Of a DNA stretch of 64,000 nucleotides, positions 1,911 through 21,853 are shown piece after piece. The position numbers were made by a program, and so were the translations under genes. Source of the DNA: Bdellovibrionales bacterium (GTDB taxonomy: Bacteria > Bdellovibrionota > Bdellovibrionia > Bdellovibrionales > JAKFYE01); assembly GCA_021731045.1 (NCBI GenBank), contig JAKFYE010000018.1:3310-67309 (forward strand), in the 5' to 3' direction. The notes beneath the pieces were generated by a model that did not search any database, was not told the DNA's origin, and worked only from the letters and a program-made list of their open reading frames with translations. Within the stretch, counting starts at the first letter, position 1; the number at the start of each line of letters is the position of its first letter.

Positions 1911-2115
1911 AAGGTACGGACATCCTTTTGCGACTGCGCGCATTATGCGCGTGCGTTTATACATTTAGTTTTTTCGAATTTTTTATGCATGCAGGATCGT
2001 GGGGTTCAATGCTGAATAAATTTTCCGATAAAAAAACCGTCAAACGGATTTTCAATTTTAATTTCTAAAACAATTTGAGTTCCAGTCGGCGGCACGATTG
2101 CAGATTTGCGCTGAC

Positions 2116-3549
2116 ATGATTGTACATTCTTTTATTCGAGATGGATTTGGATTACAAAAAATTGAAATTGAACTTTCAATAGTTCCTGGTTTACCACAAA
2201 TGAAATTTTTAGGAATGCCGGATGGTTTAATTAAAGAGAGCGAAGCGCGAATTAAAACTGCGATTCGCAATCAAGGCTTTGAAATTCCAGCTTCAAAACA
2301 AGTGCTCATTCAACTTCGACCCAATGATATTAAAAAACACAGTCGCGGATTAGATCTTGCCGTAGCGGCTGCATTTTTGTGGGAGACCGAACAACTTCCA
2401 AAGCCAGAACGTCCCAAGCCGGCTCTGTATGGTGAATTGAATTTTAATGGTGAAGTCATCGCGCCTCTTGATTTCTGTGATGTTGAAACTTTAAAATCTC
2501 AAGAGACGATCATCACCGGAAAGTCCGAAACCGATCTTGGCTTTGACTATTTAAGTGTTAACGAACTTCGAACTCTAAGTGTACCGACAATCCACACAAA
2601 ACAAGATGTCACTTTGCAAATTGTTGAGCCTTCTGTTGAAAATCTTTTTTTATCTAAAGCCCAGGCACGACTCGCCATGATTATTGCCGCTGGAGAGCAC
2701 AGCGCTTTATTTGCTGGTCCTCCGGGTACAGGCAAATCCACAATGGCCGAATATATTTCAAAAATTCTTTGTCCTAATTATGAAGACTTAAAAATGAGCG
2801 CACAAATTGCGAGGTATTTTGGAGAAAAACTGGAATGGATTCCCACTCGTCGTCCTCATCATAAATCCACATTGTTATCAATGATCGGAGCCGGCCGACC
2901 GCCTGAGCCCGGTGAGGTGACGAGAGCCCATGGAGGGGTTCTTATTATGGATGAATTTCTAGAGTTTGATTCCAAGCTTCAAGAGGCTCTCCGTGAGCCT
3001 ATAGAAACGGGAAAAATTATGATATCTCGTGCCGGTGCGGCCAGAGAATTTCCGGCAAAATTTCTTTTACTTGCCACGACCAATTTATGTAAGTGTGGGC
3101 AATTAATACCTTCAACTAAAAATCAGTGTCAGTGTCGAACTGTTCGTAAGCGGCAGTATGTCGAAAGGCTTTCAGGTCCCATACTCGATCGCTTTCAAAT
3201 TATTTCGTTTAGCCATGAATATTCTCAAGAGCACGACGTCTCTCTTACAGATATTCGTCATCGCGTAAAAAGAGCACGTGAATTTGCGCAAGAAAATAGA
3301 AAGCAGCACGCACCTAACAGTCGGATTTCAAGTTTAAGCGTAGAAAAAGACATTAGCCCCAGTCTACAAAAAGTATTTAAACTCAAAATGTCTTCGCAGC
3401 GGAGGTTAAAATCTGTGCTCCAAGTGGCCCGTACGATTGCCGATTTAAGCGAAAGCCGCGAGATTCGGGCCGGCCATCTTAATGAGGCTCTCGCGTTGTC
3501 ATTGCGCTCGGCCACTCGTATCCAAGTTGATTTACAGCGCTATATTTAA
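2116..3549 (+). CDS. comM: YifB/ComM family Mg-chelatase-like ATPase
   Basis: N-terminal Lon-like domain (GLPQMKFLGMPDGLIKESEARIKTAI), Walker A GPPGTGKST, Walker B VLIMDEF, and LSGPILDRFQI. Start moved to ATG 2116 to match the usual family N-terminus. Confidence 0.9.
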   Translation: MIVHSFIRDGFGLQKIEIELSIVPGLPQMKFLGMPDGLIKESEARIKTAIRNQGFEIPASKQVLIQLRPNDIKKHSRGLDLAVAAAFLWETEQLPKPERPKPALYGELNFNGEVIAPLDFCDVETLKSQETIITGKSETDLGFDYLSVNELRTLSVPTIHTKQDVTLQIVEPSVENLFLSKAQARLAMIIAAGEHSALFAGPPGTGKSTMAEYISKILCPNYEDLKMSAQIARYFGEKLEWIPTRRPHHKSTLLSMIGAGRPPEPGEVTRAHGGVLIMDEFLEFDSKLQEALREPIETGKIMISRAGAAREFPAKFLLLATTNLCKCGQLIPSTKNQCQCRTVRKRQYVERLSGPILDRFQIISFSHEYSQEHDVSLTDIRHRVKRAREFAQENRKQHAPNSRISSLSVEKDISPSLQKVFKLKMSSQRRLKSVLQVARTIADLSESREIRAGHLNEALALSLRSATRIQVDLQRYI

Positions 3550-3645: not shown

Positions 3646-3719
3646 GGTGACGTAGCCAAGTGGTTAGGCTCCGCTCTGCAAAAGCGGCTACGCCGGTTCA
3701 ATTCCGGCCGTCACCTCCA
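3646..3719 (+). tRNA. tRNA-Cys (anticodon GCA)
   Basis: Hand-folded cloverleaf. Acceptor GGTGACG/CGTCACC is perfect. Anticodon arm CCGCT-CTGCAAA-AGCGG. T arm GCCGG-TTCAATT-CCGGC. Discriminator is U73 (a CysRS identity element) and CCA is encoded. Confidence 0.9.
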
Positions 3720-3720
3720 A
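3709..3720 (+). repeat. attL core (3' end of tRNA-Cys)
   Basis: CGTCACCTCCAA, identical to 14726-14737. Confidence 0.55.
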
Positions 3721-4038
3721 CTTACTTGCGCAGTTTCGCGCTGAAAACTAAGTACTAGAAAACATTAAACAATCGCCTTATGTGCTGAGAAGGTTTTAGC
3801 TTTTGAGCATTTCTTAAAATTTCGCTGCATTTCTGTCGTTGGCCTGAATTTGGCCACAATCTGGCCTGAATGCGAAGTTGTAGTTTCGTGTTCCGTTTTA
3901 GCGAGAACAAGAACTCGCGACACAGTGTCCATCCATATCTTCCCTTTAGAAAGACTTTTGCCCTTACAAGAGCATTTTAATCTGTCTTAAGGGAATTGTT
4001 TTTAGAGCGTCTCTTCTTAACCCGAAAAAGAGGCGGCA

Positions 4039-4320
4039 ATGGAATTAAAAAGAATGCTGAAGCAGTTGATTTATCAGAACGACATAAGTATCGCGCATTT
4101 GGCGCGAGCTACTCGTATTCCTCGACAGACGATAGATAACTGGATGACGGGGCAAGAGCCACGAAGTCTTAAACAAGTAAAAAAGGTAGCGGATTATTTT
4201 AAGGTCCCAATGGATTACTTGTGTTTTGGTGAGACGCCAAAAGATAAATCAATTCGCGAGTACGAAGATCAAATTAATGCAGGTGTTTTTGAAGTGGTTT
4301 TAAGACGAGTTAAACGTTAA
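4039..4320 (+). CDS. XRE/Cro-C1 family HTH transcriptional regulator
   Basis: 93 aa. ISIAHLARATRIPRQTIDNWMTGQEP is a typical HTH_3 helix-turn-helix. First gene inside attL. Confidence 0.8.
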   Translation: MELKRMLKQLIYQNDISIAHLARATRIPRQTIDNWMTGQEPRSLKQVKKVADYFKVPMDYLCFGETPKDKSIREYEDQINAGVFEVVLRRVKR

Positions 4321-4329
4321 GGGGACAAC

Positions 4330-4755
4330 ATGAAATTATTTATACTACTATTCATTTTACTTAGCTCTGTGCGGACTTTAGCTACTCCCGCTGAGTGCAA
4401 GCTTTCGTTCTATAATTTTAATAAAGCCCATGAATCTAGGGTGCAGGCAGTGGGAGTTGATGAAGGTGGAAGCATAACTCTAGGCTTCAGACATGATGTA
4501 AATGCAAACCTTCAAGAACAAGCTGATATGGCGAGTTTAATTAGAGCGTGTGTATCGTCAGGTATGATGTCGCGCGCACTTTATAAGTTCAAAAAAGACG
4601 ATAAAGTCCCACACACGATTTGCACAAACTTAAATGCTATAACCCTTGGTATGGTTTGTTTGCCGTATAAATGCGAAGGGCCAAAGGGCAAAAGTTGCGC
4701 GCCGCCGCGTTTGATAAAGGGCGATGCCGATGGCAACCCTATCGAAGTGAAATAA
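4330..4755 (+). CDS. small exported cysteine-containing protein
   Basis: Signal peptide MKLFILLFILLSSVRTLA. Six Cys in the mature part. Starts 10 nt after the XRE gene, with GGGGA ahead of the ATG. Confidence 0.6.
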   Translation: MKLFILLFILLSSVRTLATPAECKLSFYNFNKAHESRVQAVGVDEGGSITLGFRHDVNANLQEQADMASLIRACVSSGMMSRALYKFKKDDKVPHTICTNLNAITLGMVCLPYKCEGPKGKSCAPPRLIKGDADGNPIEVK

Positions 4756-4928
4756 AGCATTAAAATGACCTAGTATTAGCTGCAAATTCTTCACGGACCG
4801 TTAAAACAGCGTGAACTTCAGAGCTAGAACCGTGGTTTCGGTCTCTTATGTACGGGCCAATAATAATCCAAATGACATGCTTCAATTCGACATGCTAACT
4901 AAACCCAAATTTCAAATTGGAGAGAGTT

Positions 4929-6872
4929 ATGATCATACGATCTGTGGTATTGGCTTGTTTTATAGGTCTGATTGTCGGTTGCAGCTCATCTTCCGTAAAA
5001 CCCGAGCCTCAAACCGTGTCTCTGAATAACGACACACTAATTAAGTTGGGTATTACCGCCGCGTCTCCAGCGCCCCAATATCCGTTTGAAGAGTTTTATA
5101 AGACATCTCAAATTTCGGGTTTCGAATTTAAGTCAGATAAGTCTGGCGTTTATTTCCTGAAGAAAGATGCAAAGGTTGAGAATGTTTTTGAATACAACTT
5201 TGCGAACCGTAAGATAAAGCAGATCACTTTCTTCCCAGAAACAGTATCCTCATTCCTCGTTGATCCAAAAGGAAAGTACTTAATCATCCAAAAAGATATT
5301 GGTGGAAGCGAACTATACGATCTTTACAGATTTGATTTAAAAACAAAAAAAGTTAAGCGACTTACTGATGGGAAAAACGAAGAGAGAAATTTTGCTTGCG
5401 ATCTTACCAAAGATGGTCGCAAACTTTACTTTGCTCAAAGCCGCGAGAAACGCAATTACTCTGACATTATGTCTTACGACTTGGTCTCAGACAAAATTGA
5501 AACCGTTCTTAAGGCAAATAAAGAACAACTTTATTGTAGTACTTTAAACAAGAAGAATAACTTACTAGGATTTACGAAATTTATAGACAACAACGAAGTC
5601 CATTTAGGATTGCTCGATCTCGACACTGGAAAATACAAATATATTTTAAACGAAAAAGGGATCAAGTCATCTGACGGGGTGTTTGCAGATAACACTGACA
5701 ACATTTATTTTTTGAGCACCAAAGGTTCGGACCTCTTCAGACTTTGGGTTTATAATACAAAAAGTGAACTGGTAGAGCTCGCCAAAACAGATATTTCAAA
5801 TAGCATTGAAGGTGTAGGAATTTATGGTAGCGGAAGTGTATCAGTTGTTCGTTATCGAGGTGAGTTAGCGCCTAAAGTGAAGGTCTATTCAGGAGTACTC
5901 GAAGCTGAGTTGAAACTTCCCATTGCGCCGGAGAACATTAAGAATGCGATGTTTGATAAGGAAGATCCAAAACTAGGTATTATCATCGCTCAAAATGGTG
6001 CAGCACCAAAGCAATACTATGTCTTAAATCACGACAAACTCGATTTGCTTTATAATTCTAATCAATCCTCCATTAAAGATGAGCACTTTTCAAAATCATC
6101 CTCGCTTTTTGTGAACAGCTTCGATGGTCTTAAAGTGCCAGCTCACTATTTTATTCCAAACGGTACTTCTAGTACGAATAAGAAGCCAGTCGTCTTCTGG
6201 ATTCATGGCGGTCCTGAAGACAATGTCGATCCTGAGTTTTCTTCAGTGATTCAGTATATTTTAAATCAGGGTTTTATTGTTGTTGCCCCTAACGTGCGAG
6301 GAAGCACAGGGTTTGGTAAAGCTTATCAGTTTAAGGATAACGGCGATTGGGGTGGCGGACATATCAAAGACATAGTTGCGGTGGCGGAGTTCACGCGTGG
6401 TCTTGATTTTGTTGATAGTCAGAATATATTTGTACTTGGTGGCAGTTTTGGTGGATTTAGTGTGATGTCACTTATTACTCAGTATCCTAAAGTATTTAAA
6501 GCCGCAGTGGATATTTTCGGCCCCGTCGAGTTCGCATCATTTGTTAACAGCTGGCCACCGCAAGTTCAGCCGTATTGGATCACTGAATTAGGTTTTGATC
6601 CTCGTCTTGATAAAGCTAAAAACGAAAAAGTGTCGCCGTTATATCATGTGCAAAATATTTCAATTCCTCTTCAGGTTCACCAAGGCGCGAACGATATTCG
6701 GGTACCAAAAGCACAGTCTGACTTGCTAGTTTCTGAAATCAAAAAAGCCGGAAAAGATGTTGATTACTTCGTATATGATAGCGAAGGCCACGGGTTTACA
6801 AAGTTTGAAAACTCAAAATTATGCTTTACTCGCATTACTGATTTTTTCCGAAAACAATCTAATAAGCAATAG
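4929..6872 (+). CDS. S9 family serine peptidase lipoprotein (prolyl oligopeptidase / dipeptidyl peptidase type, with N-terminal beta-propeller)
   Basis: Lipobox LIVGC. Nucleophile elbow GGSFGG, and VFWIHGGPE, NDIRVP and SEGHGF match the Ser-Asp-His triad context of S9 peptidases. ATG 4929 is preceded by GGAGAGAG. Confidence 0.85.
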   Translation: MIIRSVVLACFIGLIVGCSSSSVKPEPQTVSLNNDTLIKLGITAASPAPQYPFEEFYKTSQISGFEFKSDKSGVYFLKKDAKVENVFEYNFANRKIKQITFFPETVSSFLVDPKGKYLIIQKDIGGSELYDLYRFDLKTKKVKRLTDGKNEERNFACDLTKDGRKLYFAQSREKRNYSDIMSYDLVSDKIETVLKANKEQLYCSTLNKKNNLLGFTKFIDNNEVHLGLLDLDTGKYKYILNEKGIKSSDGVFADNTDNIYFLSTKGSDLFRLWVYNTKSELVELAKTDISNSIEGVGIYGSGSVSVVRYRGELAPKVKVYSGVLEAELKLPIAPENIKNAMFDKEDPKLGIIIAQNGAAPKQYYVLNHDKLDLLYNSNQSSIKDEHFSKSSSLFVNSFDGLKVPAHYFIPNGTSSTNKKPVVFWIHGGPEDNVDPEFSSVIQYILNQGFIVVAPNVRGSTGFGKAYQFKDNGDWGGGHIKDIVAVAEFTRGLDFVDSQNIFVLGGSFGGFSVMSLITQYPKVFKAAVDIFGPVEFASFVNSWPPQVQPYWITELGFDPRLDKAKNEKVSPLYHVQNISIPLQVHQGANDIRVPKAQSDLLVSEIKKAGKDVDYFVYDSEGHGFTKFENSKLCFTRITDFFRKQSNKQ

Positions 6873-7001
6873 ACTTACTGGGTATACACAGAAAGTTTTT
6901 AGAGTAACCACGCCCGTTAATTGTACGTTTTTAACGGATGCGCGGCGCTTAATTAACCATGCAGCCTAAACATTAGTCTGCCGTTTCTATATACTATCTA
7001 G

Positions 7002-7883
7002 ATGTCTGCCACATATTTACTAGCTAAAATTAACGCCTTTTGGAAATATGGCTTTTCTGCTGGAAAGCAATTTGCGAATCCTCACTTTCAATCCGAACAG
7101 CTAAATAATTATCTTCTGCATATACCTGCGTTACTCAAAAAAGAGGGCCATAGACCCGATTTGCTTCGCGAGCATTATGAAAGTATTTTTTCACCTATGG
7201 TTGGACTGGGGTTTACTTGTGCTAATCATAATTATGGTATTAGAGTTTTAGGTCTTAGTGGTGCATCTTTAGAGGGTCTAATGCTATTGAGACCTCAGAT
7301 TGAGGCTCTTCTTATCTTTTTTTACTTTATTGAATGCAAATCTGATCTAAAAGCTATCGAAGCAAGAGTCGAGAAGTTCAACGACTGGATTCAAGTTAAG
7401 ATGAGACAAAATCACAAGAAGTCCAAAAGTTTTGATTGGACAAAGTTTATTTACAAGAACCGTTCATTTGAAAAGACAGTAAGACAGAACTACGACAGCG
7501 TTAAAGCAAAATATAAAAATGACGAGGCTGCGTTTTTAGAGTTATGTGAATTTACAGGTTTTCTTACCTCTAAAGAGAAATTACGCTTAGCTAAAGATTT
7601 TGATATATTAGGTCTTTATAACCATATAGTCGCTGAAGCCTCGGCGAGTATTCACGTGGCAGATTTATACGACAGAATGATTCGTGTTGGAGATGTGTTC
7701 TTTCAGTTTAGATTGAAGGATGAATCAAACGGATTCTGGCCTATGAGTTTAAGTAATCTCTTATTATTTCAATATTTTTTTACGCTGTCAGAGTTTATGG
7801 GGGCAAAGGATACAATTAGTAAAGACCTTCTAAAAATATTCGCCGCGCAAAAAAAGAAAGGACCTGCGGCGAAAGGAGTGTGA
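7002..7883 (+). CDS. hypothetical protein (orphan island cargo)
   Basis: 293-aa ORF, apparently all-helical, with no signal peptide, TM segment or catalytic motif that I recognise. Confidence 0.55.
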   Translation: MSATYLLAKINAFWKYGFSAGKQFANPHFQSEQLNNYLLHIPALLKKEGHRPDLLREHYESIFSPMVGLGFTCANHNYGIRVLGLSGASLEGLMLLRPQIEALLIFFYFIECKSDLKAIEARVEKFNDWIQVKMRQNHKKSKSFDWTKFIYKNRSFEKTVRQNYDSVKAKYKNDEAAFLELCEFTGFLTSKEKLRLAKDFDILGLYNHIVAEASASIHVADLYDRMIRVGDVFFQFRLKDESNGFWPMSLSNLLLFQYFFTLSEFMGAKDTISKDLLKIFAAQKKKGPAAKGV

Positions 7884-7948
7884 TGTTGAATTTTGTAGGT
7901 TAAATCCCATATTATGTTCTGAGCAGCCGCCTTCAAATATACTTATGA

Positions 7949-8608
7949 TTAAAACTCATCAGACATTTTGGTTAAAACGTCTCTAACTTTAGGCGCTGTT
8001 TGGTAGAAGCTACTTTCGGAGACAAGATAAGGAAGAAGATTGGCTACAAAGTGTTTCGCGGCGAAAAGTTCGATCACAAAAGTCAATATTACAAAAAATA
8101 TCATAAAAAATATGTCGTATATATGCAGTGTATGAACTGAAAAGAGAGCAAGTATTAGTGTCATCTCTGCACCCAAGTGAAGGCGGACAAGTTTCTTTTT
8201 ACCGACTTTTATTTTCTCAACAATTTCCTTTTTCAAATGCTGATTTACTTCTTGCGAGGTTGACGGAATTGTTGCTGCTTTGACAGCCCACTCATCAATT
8301 ACATTTTGCCATTTAAAGAAACTTTTTGTCCAGTTTGCGAAAATTCCTCGAAACCATGTTGCACATTTTATTCCAACTACAATGACTAAGGAACATAGAA
8401 TGACATTCCAAAAAGTTGCGCTTTTAAATACAAGTTTTGTGACATCAAATACTTTGCTATTCATTAATGAGATCCAAATGCCATTCTCTAAACTAGGAGT
8501 TTGGAGTGCGTACATTGAAACAAAAAATACGAAGGCGCGCGTAAGCGGAAGTGCTTTCGCTAGATCAGATACATATTGTTTTTTTAGATCATCTATTAAT
8601 GATTCCAT
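7949..8608 (-). CDS. small integral membrane protein (about four TM helices), second gene of an orphan operon
   Basis: 219 aa. Hydrophobic segments AFVFFVSMYAL, FWNVILCSLVIVVGI, MTLILALFSV and IFFMIFFVILTFVIELF. Start lies 4 nt downstream of the stop of ORF 8613..9491. Confidence 0.65.
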   Translation of the reverse strand: MESLIDDLKKQYVSDLAKALPLTRAFVFFVSMYALQTPSLENGIWISLMNSKVFDVTKLVFKSATFWNVILCSLVIVVGIKCATWFRGIFANWTKSFFKWQNVIDEWAVKAATIPSTSQEVNQHLKKEIVEKIKVGKKKLVRLHLGAEMTLILALFSVHTLHIYDIFFMIFFVILTFVIELFAAKHFVANLLPYLVSESSFYQTAPKVRDVLTKMSDEF

Positions 8609-8612
8609 TTTT

Positions 8613-9491
8613 TTATTCTATCAGTCTAATAAAATAAATGTCACCTGCTTTAGGGTCGAATGAGCCATATTCAACTAGAGGGCAGCCGATAAAAGTTATT
8701 TTACGATCTTCTCCCAAGTAGTTTCTAACAAGAATGAAATCCTGCTCACTGGGGAAATTTATCGTGGCTTGTTTACCACCCTCTATAAGGATAATTCCCT
8801 TTTGCGACTTTGAGTTTAATTCCGTTACTTTTCCTGAGTATAGAACTGGTTCGGCAAGTGTCTTCGCCGCAACAACTTTATGAAATGCTTTGCTGGTTTC
8901 TAAATCAAATTTGAATTTTACTTGTGTCTGGCTTGTAATACTAATTTCAATAGAATTAGTAGAATCACCTGCTCTTCTAACTATTGAAGCTATTTGATCA
9001 AATTCTTTTGCAATCGACCTGTCGCCATAGCTTCTCTTAAAATCCATTTTTCCTTTAATTAAATCTTGATAGCTAATAGGTGTAACCATTTCATTTACTA
9101 CTTCCAATTTTTTCCTTTCGGCGACCTCGCTAAGTTTTTGAATGTTGTTTGAACCCTCTCGTTGGGCTTCTTTCATCGCTTGCGAAAGAGTGTCTGCAAT
9201 TCTTTTTAATACTCGTTGTGCCAGCTCGGGGTTACTGGCTGCTAAAAGGTCCAATATGAATCCGCCATTTTGGGGTACCGGAACTAGAAATTCAATTTCA
9301 GCTAAATCGTCAATTTTTACTTTTGCATGCTTGTGAACCCCTCCCTTTTCAATATCCAAATACGCTCGCCCGATTGCGCATTGGGTGTGATATAAACTTT
9401 TGGCCAAATAGCGTAATGGAATCCGGTGTTCGCGTGCAAGACTGCCTTCAAAGTGCAACTGTAAGTTCGGTCTATTCAAAGTTGGTGGCAT
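8613..9491 (-). CDS. hypothetical soluble protein, first gene of an orphan operon
   Basis: 292-aa ORF with no recognisable motif. GAGGAAACC precedes the ATG on the minus strand. Confidence 0.65.
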   Translation of the reverse strand: MPPTLNRPNLQLHFEGSLAREHRIPLRYLAKSLYHTQCAIGRAYLDIEKGGVHKHAKVKIDDLAEIEFLVPVPQNGGFILDLLAASNPELAQRVLKRIADTLSQAMKEAQREGSNNIQKLSEVAERKKLEVVNEMVTPISYQDLIKGKMDFKRSYGDRSIAKEFDQIASIVRRAGDSTNSIEISITSQTQVKFKFDLETSKAFHKVVAAKTLAEPVLYSGKVTELNSKSQKGIILIEGGKQATINFPSEQDFILVRNYLGEDRKITFIGCPLVEYGSFDPKAGDIYFIRLIE

Positions 9492-9510
9492 GGTTTCCTC
9501 ATAAGCAAAA

Positions 9511-9535
9511 TCTATAAATAATATCTATTTATAGA
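9511..9535. promoter_or_regulatory. putative operator: perfect 10-bp inverted repeat
   Basis: TCTATAAATA-ATATC-TATTTATAGA. It lies 20 nt upstream of the 9491 start, in the divergent intergenic region 9492-9721. Confidence 0.4.
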
Positions 9536-9721
9536 ATCGGATACTTTGAGGCTTGTGTGCACAGACTATAGGTCCAGGACTTTCGTGTTCGGTAATTGTC
9601 GAAGTGCGGGAGTTGAAAAAAAATAAACTTCTAGCCTGTTTGTGCGGGCTTGGCCACTCGTTCCATTTTTTTGTGTGGGAGGACCCTTGTCGTACGGGTC
9701 GTATGGTCGTATATACGGATT

Positions 9722-10441
9722 ATGGACAATCTAGTTAAAGATCTTGCTAAATATATCAAGCTTAAGGAGTTCTTAACTCTAAATGAGTTGGAAGACCATC
9801 AGCTTTTAACTGCCATCGTAAATAATGATTTGCAACTGTATGCCCATGTTGATGAAGGTGCTCTGATTGAAATTGACGAGTATAGAAACAAGAAGCGAAT
9901 AGGCACAGTGATCGACGAGTTTTTGGAAGTGTATCCAGAGGCTTTTTATGGTGCGTTCGTCAACGGAGTTGATCTAACTTCAAACTTTTTAAAGACAGAG
10001 CGCCCAATAGAAGACTGGCTACCAGATTTTGATTGGTCCGGGTTGTACTACGATACAACTCCGTCTGTTATTAAGATTGAGAATCTATATCTGAAACGTG
10101 TTCGTTCTGCGCAATATTCTCCATCGGGTACGACGGGACGACATAACGACATAGTTGTAATACAAAAAAATTGGAGCCAAATTAGAATTGGGGATGATTG
10201 TGTCAGATTAAGTCGAAGTCAGCATTTTTTATTGGAAGCACTATACTGTGCTCAAACTTCTTTAGAAATTGATCAACTTGTAAGAATCGGTGAGGAGCAA
10301 AAGTATTCGCTTATAATTAGAAGCAGAGATAAAGCATTACGAAGATTAGTCGTGCAAGGTGATGGAAAACTGTTTCCAAAACGACATTTCAAAGCATCGC
10401 AACTTTTAAAAAACGCAGTGTTTGCCGTAACAGTCGAGTAA
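9722..10441 (+). CDS. hypothetical protein upstream of the island primase
   Basis: ORF 9650..10441 trimmed to the first ATG (9722, MDNLVKDLAKYIK). No recognisable motif. Confidence 0.5.
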   Translation: MDNLVKDLAKYIKLKEFLTLNELEDHQLLTAIVNNDLQLYAHVDEGALIEIDEYRNKKRIGTVIDEFLEVYPEAFYGAFVNGVDLTSNFLKTERPIEDWLPDFDWSGLYYDTTPSVIKIENLYLKRVRSAQYSPSGTTGRHNDIVVIQKNWSQIRIGDDCVRLSRSQHFLLEALYCAQTSLEIDQLVRIGEEQKYSLIIRSRDKALRRLVVQGDGKLFPKRHFKASQLLKNAVFAVTVE

Positions 10442-10499
10442 AGCCGGTACCAAATGGTTCCAAATGGTCCTATGATTTGAATTAGAGAATCATGTACAA

Positions 10500-10517
10500 G
10501 CCTCCTAAATAGGAGGC
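10500..10517 (+). promoter_or_regulatory. hairpin sequestering the primase Shine-Dalgarno sequence
   Basis: GCCTCCT-AAAT-AGGAGGC forms a 7-bp stem whose 3' arm is the AGGAGG SD, 4 nt before GTG 10521. Confidence 0.35.
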
Positions 10518-10520
10518 ATT

Positions 10521-12602
10521 GTGAACGAAGTTTTAAAGTACGCACTATACACAGCAAAGAACGGTATTAAAGTTTTTCCTCTGGCAAGCATAGACAGTAA
10601 AAGGAATTGCACTTGTTTTAAAGGCAAAAACTGCCAACAAATCGCAAAACATCCAATCTTGGCGGGAAGTTGGAAAAAATATGCAACTACAGATGAACAA
10701 ACAATAAAATCTTGGTTTGAAAATGGGAAGTATAACTTCGCGCTGGTTGTGCCAGACAACTATGTCGTCGTAGATGTGGACCCCAAAAATGGAGGAGATC
10801 TTGCACTTGCAAACTTTGAAAAAGAGTTTGGCAAGTTAACACATACAGTTGAAGTGAAAACCGGAAGTGGCGGAAGGCATTTGTTTTATTTGAAGCCAAA
10901 GCAACTGGCGGGAGTTCACGTTAAGAATCGAGAAATTATAAGGGGTGTAGATATAAAGGCAGCAGGTGGGTATCTAGTAGGCGTTGGAAGCAATCACAAG
11001 TCAGGAAACAAATATATACAGGCCGGTGTGATGGGTTTTGATTTAACTAAGGTGCAGGAGTTGCAGCACGAAGATCTCATTAAGTTATTAAATCCACAAA
11101 AGAAGGCGAGTAAAGAAAATCACCAAAGCTCAGTGAAACCGATAATTGATGTTGGCTTTACCGATGGCAAAGTGGCTGAGGGATCGCGAAATCATTTTCT
11201 TTTTGCACTGGCTTGTTCACTTAGGGGCCGAGGTTTTTTCGAAGATCAAATACTTGGAGCCTTAAGGGTTATTAATAGTCTTCACTGTACTCCGAGTCTA
11301 TCAGAGGATGAAGTTATACTATGTTCTAAAAGTGCTGCACGTTACGCGGTCGGTGCAGCATCTCCGGAAAAGCCCAAATATTCAATGAATGACGCTTGTT
11401 TCGACGGAGCACTAGGAGAGGTTGTTAGAATTATATCTGAACATACAGAATCATCAGCAATAGGTGTGCTTTGCACATTGCTCACGATTTGTGGAAATGC
11501 AATGGGAAGAAAAGTAAAATTAGACGTTGGAAATATGAATCACGCGTCAAACCTTTTTTTAATTCTAGTTGGAAGCACGTCTAAAGGGCGAAAAGGCACT
11601 TCATATAATGTTGCCCGGGAAGTGAGCCAACAGTTCATAGATTCAAGTTGGTTTTCAAGAGTCGAAACGGGGTTAGCAAGTGGCGAAGGGTTGATTCAGG
11701 CGGTTAGAGATAAAAAAACCATTCTTAACGAAAAAGGGCAAGACGTAACAATAGATGAAGGAACTAAAGATAAACGACTACTAATATATGAGCCTGAAGT
11801 GTCTAAAGTATTAAGAGTAGCTAAGCGAGAAGGAAATACCGTGAGCCAAATTTTGCGTCAAGCTTGGGATGGGGGACGAATTCAATCTTTATCGAAAGCT
11901 TCTCCACAGGTGGCAACCGGTCACCATATTTCTATGATAGGCCATATCACTAACCATGAACTTCTTACGGAAATTGAATTGAATGACATTTTCAATGGAT
12001 TCGCTAATAGGTGTCTTTGGGTGTATGTAGAAAGAGAAAGACTGTTACCGCTCGGCGGTTCAATTATTGACTTTTTATGTGATTATAAAAAACTTGAAGG
12101 AATATTCTATGAGCCTTCGGAGCGGACTTCTCTAAAACTTTCCGAAAAAGCCAAGCCTGTATGGACGCAGATATATCAAAGTCATAATACGTCGTTTGAT
12201 ACCCAAGATGAAAAACTTAATGCGTTGGAGGCCAGAGGCACTGACCATATTCTTAGGCTTGCTTTAATCTATGCGTACGCTGACAGAGCCACAGAAATTT
12301 CTCCTCAGCACTTGCATTCTGCCCAGTCGATTTGGAATTATTGCAGGCTGTCTATCGCATATGTCTTTGGAACAAAGGCTCAGTATGCGAGCCGTGTTGA
12401 AGAGAAGATTCTTGAACTATTTAATAATCGCACTGAACTTACTAGGACACAGATACGAGATGGCCTAAACCGAAACTCAAGCTCTAAAGAGATCAACGAA
12501 ATTCGACAGCGATTGCTTGAAAAGGATCTAATCCAAGTTGATTTTAAAGATGGGACCGAGGTTTGGACGAAGAAAATAGACAACTCGATCAATTCGCACT
12601 GA
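10521..12602 (+). CDS. bifunctional Prim-Pol primase/polymerase with PriCT-like and DUF3987-like (helicase-type P-loop) domains
   Basis: Prim-Pol motifs GIKVFPL, VVVDVDPKNGG and TGSGGRHLFY. PriCT-like EGSRNHFLFALACSLRGRG...SEDEV. P-loop-like LVGSTSKGRKGTS. GTG start follows AGGAGG. Confidence 0.85.
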   Translation: MNEVLKYALYTAKNGIKVFPLASIDSKRNCTCFKGKNCQQIAKHPILAGSWKKYATTDEQTIKSWFENGKYNFALVVPDNYVVVDVDPKNGGDLALANFEKEFGKLTHTVEVKTGSGGRHLFYLKPKQLAGVHVKNREIIRGVDIKAAGGYLVGVGSNHKSGNKYIQAGVMGFDLTKVQELQHEDLIKLLNPQKKASKENHQSSVKPIIDVGFTDGKVAEGSRNHFLFALACSLRGRGFFEDQILGALRVINSLHCTPSLSEDEVILCSKSAARYAVGAASPEKPKYSMNDACFDGALGEVVRIISEHTESSAIGVLCTLLTICGNAMGRKVKLDVGNMNHASNLFLILVGSTSKGRKGTSYNVAREVSQQFIDSSWFSRVETGLASGEGLIQAVRDKKTILNEKGQDVTIDEGTKDKRLLIYEPEVSKVLRVAKREGNTVSQILRQAWDGGRIQSLSKASPQVATGHHISMIGHITNHELLTEIELNDIFNGFANRCLWVYVERERLLPLGGSIIDFLCDYKKLEGIFYEPSERTSLKLSEKAKPVWTQIYQSHNTSFDTQDEKLNALEARGTDHILRLALIYAYADRATEISPQHLHSAQSIWNYCRLSIAYVFGTKAQYASRVEEKILELFNNRTELTRTQIRDGLNRNSSSKEINEIRQRLLEKDLIQVDFKDGTEVWTKKIDNSINSH

Positions 12603-12609
12603 GTAAACC

Positions 12610-12855
12610 ATGAAAACCAAATTCAAAGTGCATAATCAGATTGAACAACCTAATGACATGGAATACCAAAGAGTTGAGACGCTCTTTGATAAAAAAATAT
12701 GGATGAATACGAGAGAAGCAGCGGAATACTTAAGTGTTTCGGTTAATAGCCTTCGATTGAAGGTGTGGAAGCGGCAAATACCTGCTTACAAATTTAACCG
12801 GCACCTTCGATTTAAGAAAATAGAGCTAGATCGGTATATGAGGCCACTAAGATAG
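12610..12855 (+). CDS. excisionase/AlpA-like HTH DNA-binding protein
   Basis: 81 aa. WMNTREAAEYLSVSVNSLRLKVWKRQIPAYKFNRHLRFKKIELDRYM matches the MerR-type excisionase HTH pattern. Lies directly upstream of the integrase. Confidence 0.7.
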   Translation: MKTKFKVHNQIEQPNDMEYQRVETLFDKKIWMNTREAAEYLSVSVNSLRLKVWKRQIPAYKFNRHLRFKKIELDRYMRPLR

Positions 12856-12863
12856 GGGACCCT

Positions 12864-14012
12864 ATGTCGATACAAGAATATTATCTAAACGATAAAAAGT
12901 ATTTCAAAGTCATTGTAAATTTGCGCTCGAAAAAGGATCGAAATCTTAAAGTTCAAAAATACAGATCAAGTATTGATGACTTAAAAGAAGCCGAGAAAAT
13001 TGAACGATCACTTTTTCGAGATGCTCACGAAATAATGGCGCGAAAAGAAAATCGTGAAAGAAGCTGGGGACCTTTGGTAGATGAATGGGAGCTTGCGCTG
13101 CGGAACGGAAGTGGCGCAATGCGCTCGCTCGTTAAAACTACTCAAGAGGACTACATCAATGTCCTCCGTCTCTACACGATAAGTTGGTGGAAGATGCCCG
13201 CTGATCAAATAACACCCGCAGATGTGCGCGATCTTCTAATAAAAGTTCACGAATTGGGTAAGTCACAAGGTCGTCAACAACGTCTCAAGACTGCCATAGA
13301 TGGGATTTTTAAATGGGGCATAGAAACAAGACGAATAAAGTTTGTTCATGCAAGCCCAGCGCGCGGAGTAAGTTTGGTTGGTCGAGTTGATGAAAGACCA
13401 CCAGAAATTCTCACGCTCAATGAAATCAAAAAACTACTTAGGTGCGCAAAGGAAATGAATCACCGCTTTTATTCAATATGGGCGATTGCGCTGCTAACAG
13501 GTTGTAGAACAGGTGAGCTTTATGCTCTTGAATGGAATGATGTGGATTTTGAAAACAGACGAGTGATGATTTCAAAGTCATACAACAAACGAATCCGTAC
13601 CTATGGCCCAACCAAGGCAGGATACTGGCGCGAGGTGCCCATGAGTGGTGAGCTTGAGAGAATGTTGAAAGAGTTAAAGCTTAACAGTGCTGGAAGAAAA
13701 TGGGTTTTACCTCGTCCTCACGAATGGACGAGTTACCAACAGGCAGCTGTTTTGCGTCAATTCTGTGGTGAAATTGGCATTCCATCTATTCGCTTCCACG
13801 CCTTACGCGCTTGCTTTGCGACTCAGTTGATAAAAGACGCCGTAGCACCTTCAGTTGTTATGAAAGTATGCGGTTGGAAGGATTTGAAGACCATGCAGAG
13901 GTATATCCGTATGGCAGGGATTGAAATTAATGGCGCCACCGACGCGCTAAAAATTCTCCCTGAAGATCAGGTTATGGGACGAGTTGCCCATCTTTTTGAC
14001 GTCGGGAGTTAG
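12864..14012 (+). CDS. tyrosine-type integrase
   Basis: 382 aa. TGCRTGELYAL (Arg I), HALRACFATQL (H-x-x-R), and GWKDLKTMQRYIRM (catalytic Tyr). Confidence 0.9.
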   Translation: MSIQEYYLNDKKYFKVIVNLRSKKDRNLKVQKYRSSIDDLKEAEKIERSLFRDAHEIMARKENRERSWGPLVDEWELALRNGSGAMRSLVKTTQEDYINVLRLYTISWWKMPADQITPADVRDLLIKVHELGKSQGRQQRLKTAIDGIFKWGIETRRIKFVHASPARGVSLVGRVDERPPEILTLNEIKKLLRCAKEMNHRFYSIWAIALLTGCRTGELYALEWNDVDFENRRVMISKSYNKRIRTYGPTKAGYWREVPMSGELERMLKELKLNSAGRKWVLPRPHEWTSYQQAAVLRQFCGEIGIPSIRFHALRACFATQLIKDAVAPSVVMKVCGWKDLKTMQRYIRMAGIEINGATDALKILPEDQVMGRVAHLFDVGS

Positions 14013-14192
14013 TTGTAAATATTGACACTGAACAGACAGATTTATAGGCTGGCCACGGTTTCATGAAATATCCAGCCGCTCGCGGCCATTTGGCTACGGT
14101 GAAAATTTCTGTCTTGTCTCTAAAGGTCTAAACAACTTTTTAAGGACTTCTTAACGCGAGCAAAGAAATAAAGTCCATGAAAGGTTGCAAAT

Positions 14193-14672
14193 ATGCAAAC
14201 CAATATCCCGTCGACAGAGAGCCTTAAAGAAAAGGCCAAAGTAGTTCGCAAGTTCCTAAAAGATAAATGCAATGCGGATGTTTCGCATAGTCACTGTCTT
14301 GAACTTATCGCGCAAGTGTATGGCATCAAGGATTGGAACACGGCTTCCGCTGTATCCAAACCAGTGGTGAACAAAAGCACTCTGCCGTTTAAGGTTGAGA
14401 CTGTCGGTGACATGAGAAAGGCATTGGAGCCGTTCAAGGATTCGGATGTCATTGATGGCATGTATGAATTTAAGATCGCAGATTTCTTAGATAAGATCGA
14501 AAACGCTAGCGAGGACGGCATAATTTCCCAAGAGTTTCGTTTAACCTTGGAAGATTTGGATGAAGGGAAAGCCGAACCAAGAATAGCCAGTTTTAAATTG
14601 AATCTGGAGCACGAAGACGTTCGCTTTGAGTCCGAAGATGGAATTCACGGTGGAGACCTAAGTTTATTTTAG
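14193..14672 (+). CDS. hypothetical protein (last island gene)
   Basis: 159 aa. The N-terminal segment VSHSHCLELIAQVYGIKDWNTASA resembles, from memory, a short helical domain seen at the N-termini of some proteins annotated as glyoxalase-superfamily. Acidic C-terminus. Confidence 0.5.
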   Translation: MQTNIPSTESLKEKAKVVRKFLKDKCNADVSHSHCLELIAQVYGIKDWNTASAVSKPVVNKSTLPFKVETVGDMRKALEPFKDSDVIDGMYEFKIADFLDKIENASEDGIISQEFRLTLEDLDEGKAEPRIASFKLNLEHEDVRFESEDGIHGGDLSLF

Positions 14673-14725
14673 GCCAAGAAGGTGTTTGTCGAGGACTTAA
14701 CTTGTTAATCTTGTTGAGTAATCGA

Positions 14726-14737
14726 CGTCACCTCCAA
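14726..14737 (+). repeat. attR core (duplicated tRNA-Cys 3' end)
   Basis: CGTCACCTCCAA in direct orientation, lying 714 nt past the integrase stop. 13 of 14 positions match if extended 2 nt to the 5' side. Confidence 0.55.
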
Positions 14738-15173
14738 ATTTCTGCTAAGAAATAGCCGCTAATTGAACTAAGTAACGAAAATCATAAACAAATGGATTCA
14801 ATGAGTTACCGAGTTCGGAACGCTTCAAACAAGACCACAAATAACCAAAGATAACAGTCTTGCTTTGGCATTTGCCTGGCATCGACCTGACATTTTTGGT
14901 GGTCTTTAACACGGGGTCTATCGGCCCAATTAATAAACGAAAAATTTAGTCTGATTTTTTTAATCCACGAGGAGGATTTATGTAGTCGTTCAATATTCGT
15001 CACTTTTACCTCCACGCTTGTCCTAACAAGCTATTATGAAAGGCAATCTTTTAACTCACGCGAGACAATCAAAGAGGAAGGAATTTCGTTGCACCTGACA
15101 GGTAATACTTCAAAATATAGAATTACAAAATGCGATATCTCGAAACGAAACTTTCTATGAACATCATTCACAT

Positions 15174-21343: not shown

Positions 21344-21853
21344 TTGAAAAAAACGTTAATTTTAAAATTCCTATTCGTTATTTTTGCATTTTCAAATTTA
21401 GTCGCTTGTGGCGGTTTTAAGCCTAAATCTCGTCCTCTTGAGAAGCAAACCCTTCAAGTTCCTACACCGAACCCTGTCACGCCACCTCCAACGCCGTCCC
21501 CCGGTGCTCCACCAATAGATGTGACCTGTAAGAATAATAAAATATCGTTAGCTTGGGATGCACCTACAACTTCGACGGGAGCGATTGATACTTCAATTCT
21601 TGGTTATATTATGTTTATAGGGCATGCTTCAGGCGTATATGACTACAGCGTTTATTCATTTAGCCTCACGCTGACATTAAACTCATTACCTTTAGGAAAG
21701 TACTTTTTTTCTGTGAAAGCTTTTAATGATGCAGGTGAAAGTCCTTTTTCTGATGAAATTTCAACAGAAATTACAGAGTGTAAAACGGCTATTAGTGTGA
21801 ATATGGGTCAAGAAGCAGATTCAGCGATTGAATTAGCAGAACAAAAAAATTGA
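21344..21853 (+). CDS. lipoprotein with Pro-rich linker and fibronectin type III-like domain
   Basis: Lipobox LVACGG, linker PTPNPVTPPPTPSPGAPP, and an FN3-like segment ISLAWDAP...GKYFFSVKAFNDAGESPFS. Confidence 0.65.
   Translation: MKKTLILKFLFVIFAFSNLVACGGFKPKSRPLEKQTLQVPTPNPVTPPPTPSPGAPPIDVTCKNNKISLAWDAPTTSTGAIDTSILGYIMFIGHASGVYDYSVYSFSLTLTLNSLPLGKYFFSVKAFNDAGESPFSDEISTEITECKTAISVNMGQEADSAIELAEQKN

Follow-up and report, generated by a model that had tools for sequence, protein, structure and literature searches.

Positions 3721 to 14737 of the window (the whole 64,000-nucleotide stretch analysed here, from a Bdellovibrionales MAG) make up a single 11,017-bp site-specific integrative element, which is inserted at the very 3' terminus of the host's only tRNA-Cys(GCA) gene, a reading to which we assign a probability of about 85%. 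The element was confirmed to be intact-looking, its repeats, its intact genes, its family and the family's boundaries all being seen directly. The sequence-only reading had described an intact-looking mobile island at tRNA-Cys in a host of predatory lineage, and siblings of like architecture, whose homology ends at both borders, bear this out. The element is real and, as a kind, not surprising.

ARAGORN and Rfam placed tRNA-Cys(GCA) at 3646-3719 on the + strand. This gene, the integration target and the attB side of attL, is intact, encodes its CCA and is the sole tRNA-Cys of the assembly. The attL core CGTCACCTCCAA (3709-3720, + strand) comprises the 3' strand of the acceptor stem, the discriminator base, CCA and one further base, and a second perfect copy at 14726-14737 (+ strand) forms the attR core. 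Exactly two copies of CGTCACCTCCAA are present in the window, in direct orientation, as compared to 0.01 matches expected from shuffles, and no other copy was found on either strand of the whole assembly (2,584,040 bp); the earlier claim of a 12-mer direct repeat, made of the tRNA-Cys end plus one base, stood unchanged. The repeat is exactly 12 bp long, and the bases adjoining the two copies differ.

The repeat could be a chance match, the gene cluster being ordinary chromosome. It is short, and when the tRNA with 40 further nt was searched in the window by blastn-short, the 12-bp match had an E value of 0.33; thus, the repeat by itself is not decisive. It becomes convincing because it spans the tRNA 3' end, lies in direct orientation and falls 714 bp past the integrase gene. 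Moreover, the two copies are the only ones in 2.58 Mb, an equivalent repeat is present at the respective tRNA gene of seven other family members, and both borders match the ends of sibling homology to the base. At the left boundary, an nhmmer profile built from the left arms of siblings L052 and L054 alone matched 3731-3872 (E 7.1e-14), with no other significant match in the 2.58-Mb genome. At the right boundary, blastn similarity to sibling L200 (76.5% over 963 nt) stops exactly at 14737. Sibling homology begins at the tRNA end and runs up to the final base of attR. These comparative data refute the chance repeat in ordinary chromosome, to which we give practically no credence.

The genes named from the letters alone, namely the XRE regulator, the Prim-Pol/PriCT/DUF3987 primase, the AlpA-like HTH protein, the tyrosine integrase and the gene at 14193-14672, were all found, with Pfam support. 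The first gene of the element (4039-4320, + strand) encodes an XRE/Cro-C1-type HTH regulator (HTH_3) showing 63-73% identity with sibling XRE proteins, and is presumed, from its position and family, to be the maintenance repressor. It is followed on the + strand by cargo genes for a 141-aa protein with a hydrophobic N-terminal leader and no family match (4330-4755) and for a serine peptidase of the S9 prolyl-oligopeptidase family with a signal/lipobox-like N-terminus (4917-6872), of which no paralogue was found in the assembly. The variable cargo slot also holds a 293-aa orphan protein (7002-7883, + strand; DUF5677 match below threshold). A two-gene cargo operon on the - strand (7949-9491) has one gene for a soluble protein of 292 aa (phrog_28486, E 3.3e-69) and one for a membrane protein of 219 aa (phrog_31922, E 5.4e-8). 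No part of the island is lower in GC than this operon, and siblings carry defence systems at the same spot. In this copy the variable slot holds three orphan genes besides the S9 peptidase and the small leader-bearing protein. A perfect 10-bp inverted repeat (9511-9535), a candidate operator, lies in the divergent promoter region that separates the cargo operon from the replication-excision operon.

Repeats of (G)GTCGTA (9689-9712, + strand) lie directly 5' of a gene for a 239-aa protein (9722-10441, + strand). Iteron- or operator-like in appearance, these repeats are kept in five siblings of Prim-Pol type. The 239-aa protein is a conserved partner of the Prim-Pol primase, homologues with 34-35% identity being encoded directly 5' of the primase in L201, L202 and L203; its single-sequence structure model (pLDDT 34) was unusable. 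Tandem 10-mers (GGTACCAAAT x 2.3; 10446-10468, + strand) are present 5' of the primase gene as candidate iterons, and the corresponding place in sibling L054 is taken by an 11-bp x 4 array. The replication protein itself (10521-12602, + strand) is a primase-helicase with Prim-Pol (1.1e-26), PriCT_1 (1.8e-11) and DUF3987 (6.9e-13) matches. An AlpA/excisionase-like HTH_17 protein (12610-12855, + strand; E 1.3e-11, with excisionase/regulator PHROGs) is encoded directly 5' of the tyrosine integrase (12864-14012, + strand; Phage_integrase, E 1.9e-24). The integrase has the complete catalytic set (R215, K251, H312, R315, W338, Y347), which is invariant in a four-member family alignment. The last gene (14193-14672, + strand) encodes a 159-aa protein, the N-terminal 60 residues of which match Glyoxalase_8 (PF20066), and lies in a further small cargo slot, the one that separates int from attR. 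The sequence-only reading had placed the integrase at the 'attR-distal' end, a slip of wording for the tRNA-distal, attR-proximal end, and had called unusual both this placement and the extra gene before attR; both are traits of the family and not oddities of this copy.

The non-coding sequence next to the tRNA (3721-3872, + strand) is conserved in alignment with siblings and represents the left arm (P' arm of attP). The two copies of TGGCCTGAAT noticed earlier were present at 3840-3849 and 3862-3871, and a third unit, TGGCCACAAT (3851-3860), lies between them. The array is therefore one of three 11-bp phased direct repeats in tandem, TGGCCTGAAT / TGGCCACAAT / TGGCCTGAAT (3839-3871, + strand), 119 bp from the core. 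In four elements, this one included, an equivalent array lies at a distance of 119-133 bp from the core, and arrays are also present in L201 and L208; the position of the array was conserved in all siblings examined. The phased repeats are plausible candidates for arm-type sites of Int or of an accessory protein. The earlier suggestion of arm-type sites gained from this conserved position, but the right arm of this copy lent it nothing, as matches to the repeat unit across a 776-nt stretch were only 7-mers at chance level (12 vs about 5 expected), too weak to serve as evidence. In one sibling a 14-mer copy of the repeat is present in the opposite arm.

Besides this copy, eight elements found in Bdellovibrionota genomes and metagenomes have one common scaffold, in which tRNA/attL is followed by a left arm with three phased 10-11-bp repeats, usually XRE, the variable slot, the replication module, alpA, int and attR, with one more small cargo gene between int and attR in some members. 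Six of the eight occupy tRNA-Cys, one tRNA-Asp and one tRNA-Asn. Their direct repeats, 8-17 bp long, copy the tRNA 3' end. At tRNA-Cys, repeat and unit lengths were 10 bp and 9,310 bp (G113/L052), 16 bp and 8,658 bp (G351/L103), 9 bp and 8,110 bp (L200), 11 bp and 8,296 bp (L205), and 8 bp and 8,373 bp (L208); the corresponding values were 17 bp and 9,272 bp for L054 at tRNA-Asp, and 16 bp and 11,183 bp for L105 at tRNA-Asn. The cargo differs in every member and in siblings includes Gabija (GajA 1.8e-156, GajB 1.2e-66), PDC-M24B (8.7e-72; a PADLOC candidate system), a PDC-S33-like RelA/SpoT protein (1.5e-14), a CBASS-type patatin with SMODS/CD-NTase, and a PLD nuclease and TerS. Hosts of the relatives are recorded as Bdellovibrionales, Oligoflexia, Bacteriovoracaceae and B. 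qaytius. The distribution is patchy, XRE homologues being present in 46 of 384 genomes of the order and integrase relatives in 111 of 201. Nearly all occurrences of the family are in Bdellovibrionota.

Mobile elements of Bdellovibrio-like predators are barely described. In the literature on Bdellovibrio we found no paper on such elements, and Bdellovibrio and phage satellites were mentioned together only in passing. The family is so far undescribed yet fairly ordinary; its islands often carry anti-phage defence genes. What is now defined is a family of small self-replicating tRNA-targeting islands that is widespread in its phylum. Its ends are known to the base, its cis-acting arm is conserved, and anti-phage systems recur in its cargo slot. 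It offers a route to defence genes in Bdellovibrio-like bacteria, with the three orphan genes in the slot of this copy as candidates, and a concrete spot in which to seek phage-satellite biology in predatory bacteria. The integrases, whose tRNA targets are known, could become tools for genetic work in organisms that resist manipulation.

An excised or tandem form was obtained for one sibling. The L201 contig assembled by SPAdes has identical 55-nt ends and closes through the att core to a circle of 8,112 bp, in the order int (67%), 159-aa gene (79%), CTCGAC|ACCACCTCCAA|TTTAATCC, left arm (E 6.9e-19), 239-aa homologue and primase. It is devoid of tRNA, and its junction reads right arm-core-left arm. 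Its coverage is very low (0.9) and several frames are broken. This contig shows an excised or tandem form, as a chromosomal tandem duplication assembles alike, and it does so for the family and not for this copy.

We propose that Int would recombine the two 12-bp cores, AlpA assisting as directionality factor or activator, and that this would leave an intact tRNA-Cys and free an 11,017-bp circle. In the circle, int, the 159-aa gene, attP, the left arm and XRE would be contiguous, and the phased left-arm repeats may act as arm-type sites. The Prim-Pol/PriCT/DUF3987 protein would replicate the circle, probably with its 239-aa partner and the iteron-like repeats 5' of both genes. In the integrated state, XRE would silence the rightward replication/excision operon. 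Position and family are the grounds on which XRE, AlpA, the repeats and the 239-aa protein are given these roles. The variable slot carries accessory genes, known anti-phage systems occupying it in siblings. For movement from cell to cell, our best guess is that a helper phage packages the DNA, and other vehicles are possible.

The chromosomal setting was compared with that of relatives. The order Xer-ComM-tRNA-Cys is kept in five of them, and in 14 relatives the tRNA-Cys gene has neither XRE nor left arm behind it. An empty site, the earlier proposal for checking the insertion, was thus found in the form of 14 unoccupied targets, but no near-isogenic or same-species one is available, the nearest genomes belonging to other genera with downstream flanks that are not conserved. 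The proposed composition check gave a GC content of 39.9% for the island as against 41.8 ± 1.2% (6.5th percentile) and a tetranucleotide distance within the top 8.5%, which is atypical but modestly so. A low-GC stretch was also observed 3' of attR.

The island might instead be a fixed, immobile remnant, in which the repeats are an old integration scar and the genes are kept for useful cargo. Its only mildly atypical composition would fit such domestication, as would the lack of a second or near-identical copy anywhere: no integrase more than 81% identical was found elsewhere among 5.8 billion proteins, so that recent transfer of exactly this element is undocumented. Exact-pattern scans of metagenome and genome contigs for all four junction types likewise gave zero matches for this copy. 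However, all mobility genes are full-length with intact catalytic residues, both att cores are perfect, and the non-coding left arm with its repeat array is conserved, apparently under constraint. The patchy distribution, the different cargo in each member and the one circle/tandem member argue that mobility of the family is ongoing, and we consider a remnant improbable. Transfer as an integrative mobilisable element, using a conjugative system in trans and a cryptic oriT and no phage, would agree with int, excisionase and replication genes unaccompanied by transfer genes, as in many such elements, a point already made in the sequence-only reading. Pfam searches found no relaxase, coupling protein, FtsK-like translocase or type IV secretion domain here or in any examined sibling, and nothing seen incidentally points to conjugative elements in the hosts; we consider this reading less probable still.

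The element may also be a true phage satellite (PICI/P4/PICMI-like), which upon infection by a helper, in that case probably virulent, would be excised, replicated by its own primase and packaged in helper capsids, its cargo interfering with phages. This is possible but doubtful. This copy has an integrase, a regulation module (alpA/merR/stl homologue) and a primase-replicase, i.e. three of the five PICI core components (PMC10085698), and the size of the elements (8-11 kb) is within the satellite range. Sibling G113/L052 has four of the five, as it encodes a small terminase (Terminase_2, E 2.9e-24) and no large terminase or capsid gene. Defence systems in the variable slot recall the hotspots of P4 and PICI (PMC9122126), and many siblings lie on contigs of about element size. 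Against this, clusters with three components ('Type C') are not counted as confident by the authors of SatelliteFinder (PMC10085698). The earlier statement that no capsid, terminase, tail or conjugation genes are present was upheld, as Pfam, PHROGs and PADLOC gave no capsid, terminase, tail, relaxase or type IV secretion domain in any island ORF, and no TerS, capsid-morphogenesis, Psu/Sid/Delta-like or other packaging gene. No terS was found among the island ORFs or in the whole assembly, L052 being the only family member with one; for capsid morphogenesis there was no Pfam or PHROGs match in the island, where orphan ORFs could still encode such a function. The host genome (83.5% complete) yielded no prophage hallmark, HK97 capsid, Terminase_6N and Terminase_2 all being absent, and five sibling hosts gave one weak TerL match and zero HK97 capsid. 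Only one relative of the integrase, and a distant one (38%), was found in IMG/VR, and no helper phage was found. The label 'satellite-like' is thus borne out in three of five PICI core components but not in a packaging gene or helper phage, and 'satellite' is only a resemblance because genes for packaging, capsid or conjugation are absent from this copy.

A wider proposal, which we offer only tentatively, would make this element and its kin the first phage satellites in the predatory Bdellovibrionota. They would then be a phylum-specific satellite family with a scaffold of its own, in which XRE and the arm repeats mark one terminus while alpA-int, preceded by a replication module that can be exchanged, marks the opposite one. 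Their helper phages would probably be virulent, and they would be the chief means by which anti-phage systems (Gabija, CBASS, PDC candidates) pass between these predators.

Among known systems, PICIs (PMC10085698) resemble the element in tyrosine integrase, AlpA-type regulator, primase-replicase, a size of about 10 kb and site-specific integration, in the absence of tail and lysis genes, and in accessory and defence genes in a variable region, with terS in one sibling. The element differs from them as a 'Type C' cluster without terS or capsid-morphogenesis gene, in having XRE at one end and alpA-int, downstream of the primase, at the other, in having no known helper phage, and in a host phylum outside those reported for PICI. 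P4-like satellites share the size of about 11 kb, the tRNA 3' end, int, alpA, a primase-helicase, iteron-like repeats by the replication gene and a defence hotspot. However, the psu-delta-sid operon and epsilon were not detected among the island ORFs (PHROGs, Pfam), int is tRNA-distal here, and the primase is of Prim-Pol/PriCT/DUF3987 type whereas that of P4 is of the alpha type. PICMI and marine VEIMEs (PMC10803314, PMC9618062), which virulent helpers presumably package as concatemers, are likewise small and integrative, with int, AlpA and primase, sometimes terS, and no capsid-remodelling genes; no Fis-type gene was seen here, and the likeness is one of gene content. Tycheposons (bioRxiv 10.1101/2020.12.28.424599), which occur in Prochlorococcus and further marine bacteria, differ in host phylum and scaffold, and the resemblance is functional only: a tRNA-targeting tyrosine recombinase, replication hallmark genes and cargo are all present here, as are an excisionase and a primase/helicase module. 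Their cargo-carrying and PICI-like (terS-bearing) forms have common integration and replication modules (bioRxiv 10.1101/2020.12.28.424599). They also share a patchy distribution, a different tRNA target for each integrase clade, and an apparent accretion of material beside the tRNA; here the low-GC stretch lies past attR.

The island at 3721-14737 of the window (11,017 bp) appears to be a site-specific, self-replicating integrative element with base-precise ends, and to belong to a family spread across the Bdellovibrionota. The tRNA-Cys(GCA) gene that it adjoins (3646-3719, + strand) was the sole tRNA found in the window by ARAGORN, and Rfam concurred. The 12-bp core CGTCACCTCCAA covers the end of this gene at 3709-3720 (attL, + strand) and recurs as an exact match in direct orientation at 14726-14737 (attR, + strand), which bears out the repeat noticed in the sequence-only reading. 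Scanned on both strands, the complete sequence of assembly G000 (2,584,040 bp, 47 contigs, 83.5% complete) contained no further copy, and shuffles gave an expectation of 0.01 matches. The repeat is exactly 12 bp long: it takes in the acceptor stem's 3' strand, the discriminator base and the encoded CCA, plus 1 extra base. A 12-bp repeat is weak evidence taken alone, and the attR match had an E value of 0.33 when the tRNA region was compared with the window by blastn-short. The repeat is convincing because of its position, as it covers the tRNA end, is directly oriented and lies 714 bp past the integrase gene. The 10-mer CACCTCCAAC at 21483 was rejected as a further core, since it is at chance level (E 5.1) and 6.7 kb outside attR.

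Upstream of tRNA-Cys lie genes for a Xer-type recombinase (1038-1910) and a ComM/Mg-chelatase-like ATPase (2098-3549), and the same order of these two genes and the tRNA was retained in five relatives. The nearest genomes compared belong to other genera within the same family and order, and synteny downstream of tRNA-Cys was conserved in none of eight such relatives; a same-species comparison with an empty site was therefore impossible. In 14 relatives tRNA-Cys is followed by unrelated sequence, devoid of the XRE gene and the left arm (3721-3872 in the window).

Pfam analysis confirmed the four proteins named from sequence alone, namely an XRE regulator (HTH_3, 4039-4320), a Prim-Pol + PriCT_1 + DUF3987 primase (10521-12602), an AlpA/excisionase-like protein (HTH_17, 12610-12855) and an integrase (Phage_integrase, 12864-14012). 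Capsid, terminase, tail, lysis, relaxase and secretion domains were undetected in the island by Pfam, PHROGs and PADLOC, in agreement with the earlier statement that capsid, terminase, tail and conjugation genes were absent. The description of the island as intact-looking also held: the ORFs are all full-length and tightly packed, the integrase residues R215, K251, H312, R315, W338 and Y347 are invariant in a four-member alignment, the two cores match perfectly and the attL tRNA is intact. The GC content of the island is 39.9% against 41.8 ± 1.2% for the genome, and that of 7000-9500 is 37.0% (0.8th percentile of the genome). A single-sequence structure model of its 239-aa protein had a pLDDT of 34. 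Between the integrase and attR lies a 159-aa ORF (14193-14672), residues 1-60 of which match Glyoxalase_8 (Pfam). Its homologues (44-59% identical), annotated 'glyoxalase superfamily protein', occur in Bdellovibrio bacteriovorus and Micavibrio aeruginosavorus, the latter an unrelated predator.

Relatives of the integrase (E <= 1e-40) were found in 111 of the 201 sampled genomes of the order, and relatives of the XRE protein (E <= 1e-15) in 46 of 384. The carriers of the integrase family were Bdellovibrionales, Oligoflexia, Bacteriovoracaceae and Pseudobdellovibrionaceae MAGs and Bdellovibrio sp. qaytius. At 9 of 30 XRE loci, the window's own included, a tRNA gene lies 300-900 bp 5' on the same strand, the tRNAs upstream of XRE loci being those for Cys, Asp, Met, Ser, Arg and Asn. 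The repeats copy the tRNA 3' end, and units were measured between repeat starts. Besides this copy (12 bp; 11,017 bp), the tRNA-Cys members were L103 in genome G351 (repeat 16 bp, unit 8,658 bp, integrase identity 70%), L205 (11 bp, 8,296 bp, 68%), L052 in genome G113 (10 bp, 9,310 bp, 64%), L208 (8 bp, 8,373 bp, 56%) and L200 (9 bp, 8,110 bp, 53%). L054 in genome G139 is at tRNA-Asp (17 bp, 9,272 bp, 52%) and L105 in genome G010 at tRNA-Asn (16 bp, 11,183 bp, about 35%). Two members are partial, L202 with the nearest integrase anywhere (81%; alpA 77%, primase 50%) and L203 (integrase 68%, XRE 63%). Members run in a common order, from the tRNA through a conserved non-coding arm, an XRE gene in most cases, variable genes and the replication module to alpA and int, then an optional small gene and the repeat. 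The integrase, called attR-distal in the sequence-only reading but in fact tRNA-distal and attR-proximal, and the gene before attR had been taken as unusual there; the shared gene order makes the tRNA-distal integrase a family trait. In a circular form, int would lie just 5' of attP and XRE just 3', and an integrase 5' of attP with a regulator 3' is the usual arrangement.

A second alpA-int pair is present in G000 outside the window, on contig C31 (456-6470), with an integrase gene (41% identical) on the minus strand at 456-1544, an alpA-like gene at 1589-1732 and tRNA-Ser(GGA) on the same strand at 6381-6470. This appears to be an element of roughly 6 kb with the same layout from tRNA to alpA-int; the 455 bp preceding the contig end held no repeat.

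The proposal of a mobile island at tRNA-Cys was right in substance, as the ends match the limits of homology to siblings of the same architecture. Members agree in the 150 bp that follow the tRNA (mean identity 69%), and this holds even across Cys- and Asp-targeting elements. A left-arm profile built from L052 and L054 only matched window 3731-3872 (E 7.1e-14), with an envelope beginning at the tRNA end, and had no other significant match in G000. On the other side, window 13782-14737 showed 76.5% nucleotide similarity to L200 over 963 nt, ending at 14737, where the attR repeat also ends; past this base the two are unrelated. The element side of attR is likewise conserved in the window, L052, L200 and L201, where TCGAC is followed by the acceptor-stem copy.

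Recombination at the core was seen in the sibling L201, an ENA SPAdes contig (NODE_19772_length_8167_cov_0.90) with identical 55-nt ends and a unit of 8,112 bp. Identical contig ends are the usual sign of a cycle in the assembly graph. The contig reads from the C-terminal part of the primase through alpA, int (67%) and the 159-aa gene (79%) to CTCGAC/ACCACCTCCAA/TTTAATCC; next come the left arm, with a profile E of 6.9e-19 and three TGCTGAAT units spaced in 11-bp phase, a 35%-identical homologue of the 239-aa protein and the N-terminal part of the primase. The contig lacks a tRNA and chromosomal flank. The junction is that expected for attP, on a contig with a very low coverage of 0.90 and several broken frames, and a tandem chromosomal array would assemble alike. 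L201 shows that the family recombines at the att core, as excision or tandem formation demonstrated for this sibling only, with nothing direct on the window copy. For the island itself, the attP junction would read GTTGAGTAATCGA/CGTCACCTCCAA/CTTACTTGCGCAG, and the empty attB left after excision CAATTCCGGC/CGTCACCTCCAA/ATTTCTGCTAAG. One degenerate pattern for attL, attR, attB and attP gave zero matches in metagenome contigs and genome contigs. Exact-protein look-ups with flank and end genes retrieved two Logan contigs of 1,065 bp that are identical to the window (from SRR10388232 and SRR10388245), too short and low in coverage to interpret. That from SRR10388232 (L071) spans 3712-4776 and starts three bases into the core, possibly a graph branch at the att site, which at such length and coverage is indistinguishable from a random contig end; the second stops at 14803.

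Just outside attR, a left-arm-like stretch at 14766-14793 was rejected as a decayed tandem element, as its 71% identity over 28 nt is equalled by many chance repeats and the left-arm profile was silent. The segment 14738-16700, with 37.4% GC (1.3th percentile of the genome), contains a minus-strand gene for a class I methyltransferase and a lipoprotein-like ORF of 163 aa. It may consist of older DNA that accumulated beside the tRNA, a process proposed for tycheposon islands; neither a repeat nor an integrase remnant was found in it. Directly after the tRNA-Asp island L054, just outside its attR (G139:C58, 16399-17875), lie genes for an XRE-type HTH protein and a serine resolvase, which may be part of a further small mobile element stacked onto this island's site.

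The pair of TGGCCTGAAT copies described beside attL is real and belongs to a 3 x 11-bp array (3839-3871), the middle unit of which is TGGCCACAAT. The window, L052, L054 and L103 have phased arrays of about three 10-11-bp units at a distance of 119-133 bp from the core. L201 and L208 carry such arrays too, and the unit sequence varies between elements. In L208 a 14-mer of the array is repeated in the right arm, about 60 nt ahead of the attR core; right-arm copies are convincing in that member only, weak in L052, and rejected in the window, where the matches were at chance level. The island's three candidate sites resemble P'1-P'3 of phage lambda, which are arm-type sites arranged in tandem beside the core. 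On the best reading, Int would bind the array through its arm-binding function. Five Prim-Pol-type members have (G)GTCGTA repeats directly 5' of the gene for the 239-aa protein, and the window (10446-10468) and L054 (11 bp x 4) have short tandem arrays directly 5' of that for the primase; both kinds of repeat are candidates for iterons or operators. The cargo operon and the replication/excision operon are divergent, and the promoter region that separates them contains a perfect inverted repeat of 10 bp (9511-9535). A conserved non-coding block precedes the 239-aa gene at window 9640-9725 and at the corresponding places in L202, L103 and L054, with a terminator-like GCGGGC...CCAC.CG hairpin and T-run, GGGAGG(G)ACCC and the (G)GTCGTA repeats in that order. 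The block had no Rfam match. Promoter and terminator scans gave the same counts as shuffles.

The replication module appears to be exchangeable between members. The Prim-Pol/PriCT/DUF3987 protein occurs with a 215-260-aa partner in the window, L054, L201, L202 and L203 and with a different upstream gene in L208; L205 and L052 have Prim-Pol + AAA_25 or AAA_25 alone, and L103 and L107 a DUF5906 SF3-helicase type. The slot between XRE and this module differs in content in every member and often houses defence systems. L107 carries a complete Gabija system (GajA E 1.8e-156, GajB E 1.2e-66), L103 PDC-M24B (8.7e-72) with DUF6978 and SNase, L054 a 950-aa RelA/SpoT-domain protein (PDC-S33 match, 1.5e-14), L200 a CBASS-type patatin + SMODS/CD-NTase, L203 a KAP NTPase, L208 a DUF4160/BrnA-antitoxin-like pair, and L052 a PLD nuclease with a small terminase (Terminase_2, 2.9e-24). 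The window's cargo, without homologues in any other fetched member, consists of a protein of 141 aa that bears an N-terminal leader, an S9 peptidase whose N-terminus is lipoprotein-like and which has no paralogue in the genome, a 293-aa orphan and a two-gene operon on the minus strand (7949-9491). Both operon products gave full-length matches to PHROG families without assigned function (phrog_28486, 3.3e-69; phrog_31922, 5.4e-8), and they are a candidate new defence pair because the slot that they occupy holds Gabija, CBASS or PDC systems in siblings. A second small slot lies between int and attR. Its occupant in the window, L200 and L201 is the Glyoxalase_8-like gene; L054 has a methyltransferase there, and L205 a Gp49/HTH_37 toxin-antitoxin-like pair.

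That the family consists of true phage satellites seems doubtful. The PICI core used by SatelliteFinder comprises integrase, regulator (alpA/merR/stl), primase-replicase, capsid morphogenesis and terS, and 'Type C' clusters with the first three components only are explicitly not confident satellites (PMC10085698). The island has exactly these three, and the sibling in G113 adds terS. HK97 capsid, Terminase_6N and Terminase_2 were not found in G000 (83.5% complete); five sibling hosts gave one weak TerL match and no HK97 capsid, and IMG/VR held a single, distant integrase relative. With no prophage hallmarks and such scant IMG/VR relatives, the helper, if any, would be a virulent phage or of an unrecognised type. 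A conjugative route has no support, as there is no relaxase or transfer gene. The closest functional analogues of the island are tycheposons, which combine a tRNA-targeting recombinase, primase/helicase and cargo, and whose PICI-like and cargo forms have modules in common (bioRxiv 10.1101/2020.12.28.424599); the minimalist PICMI/VEIME satellites are also close (PMC10803314, PMC9618062). Literature searches on Bdellovibrio turned up no paper on such elements, and the papers that pair Bdellovibrio with phage satellites mention them only in passing.

Two other tRNA-Cys loci deserve mention. The best homologue of the S9 peptidase among the fetched loci (30% identity, phmmer E 1e-82) lies 1 kb 3' of tRNA-Cys in genome G012 (L018, G012:C3, 11032-12897), which has no integrase or XRE of the island's family. 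An ancestral chromosomal origin of the peptidase, suggested by this homologue, was rejected, as the gene sits between the family left arm/XRE and the replication module; the location of L018 is either coincidence or a hint of peptidase capture from such a site. In L012 (G016:C18), TTAAGCCGCCACTTCCA lies three bases past the CCA of tRNA-Cys and nearly matches TTAAGCCGCCACCTCCA, the element-side end of attR plus core in G351 and L202, and may be the scar of a lost member of the family.
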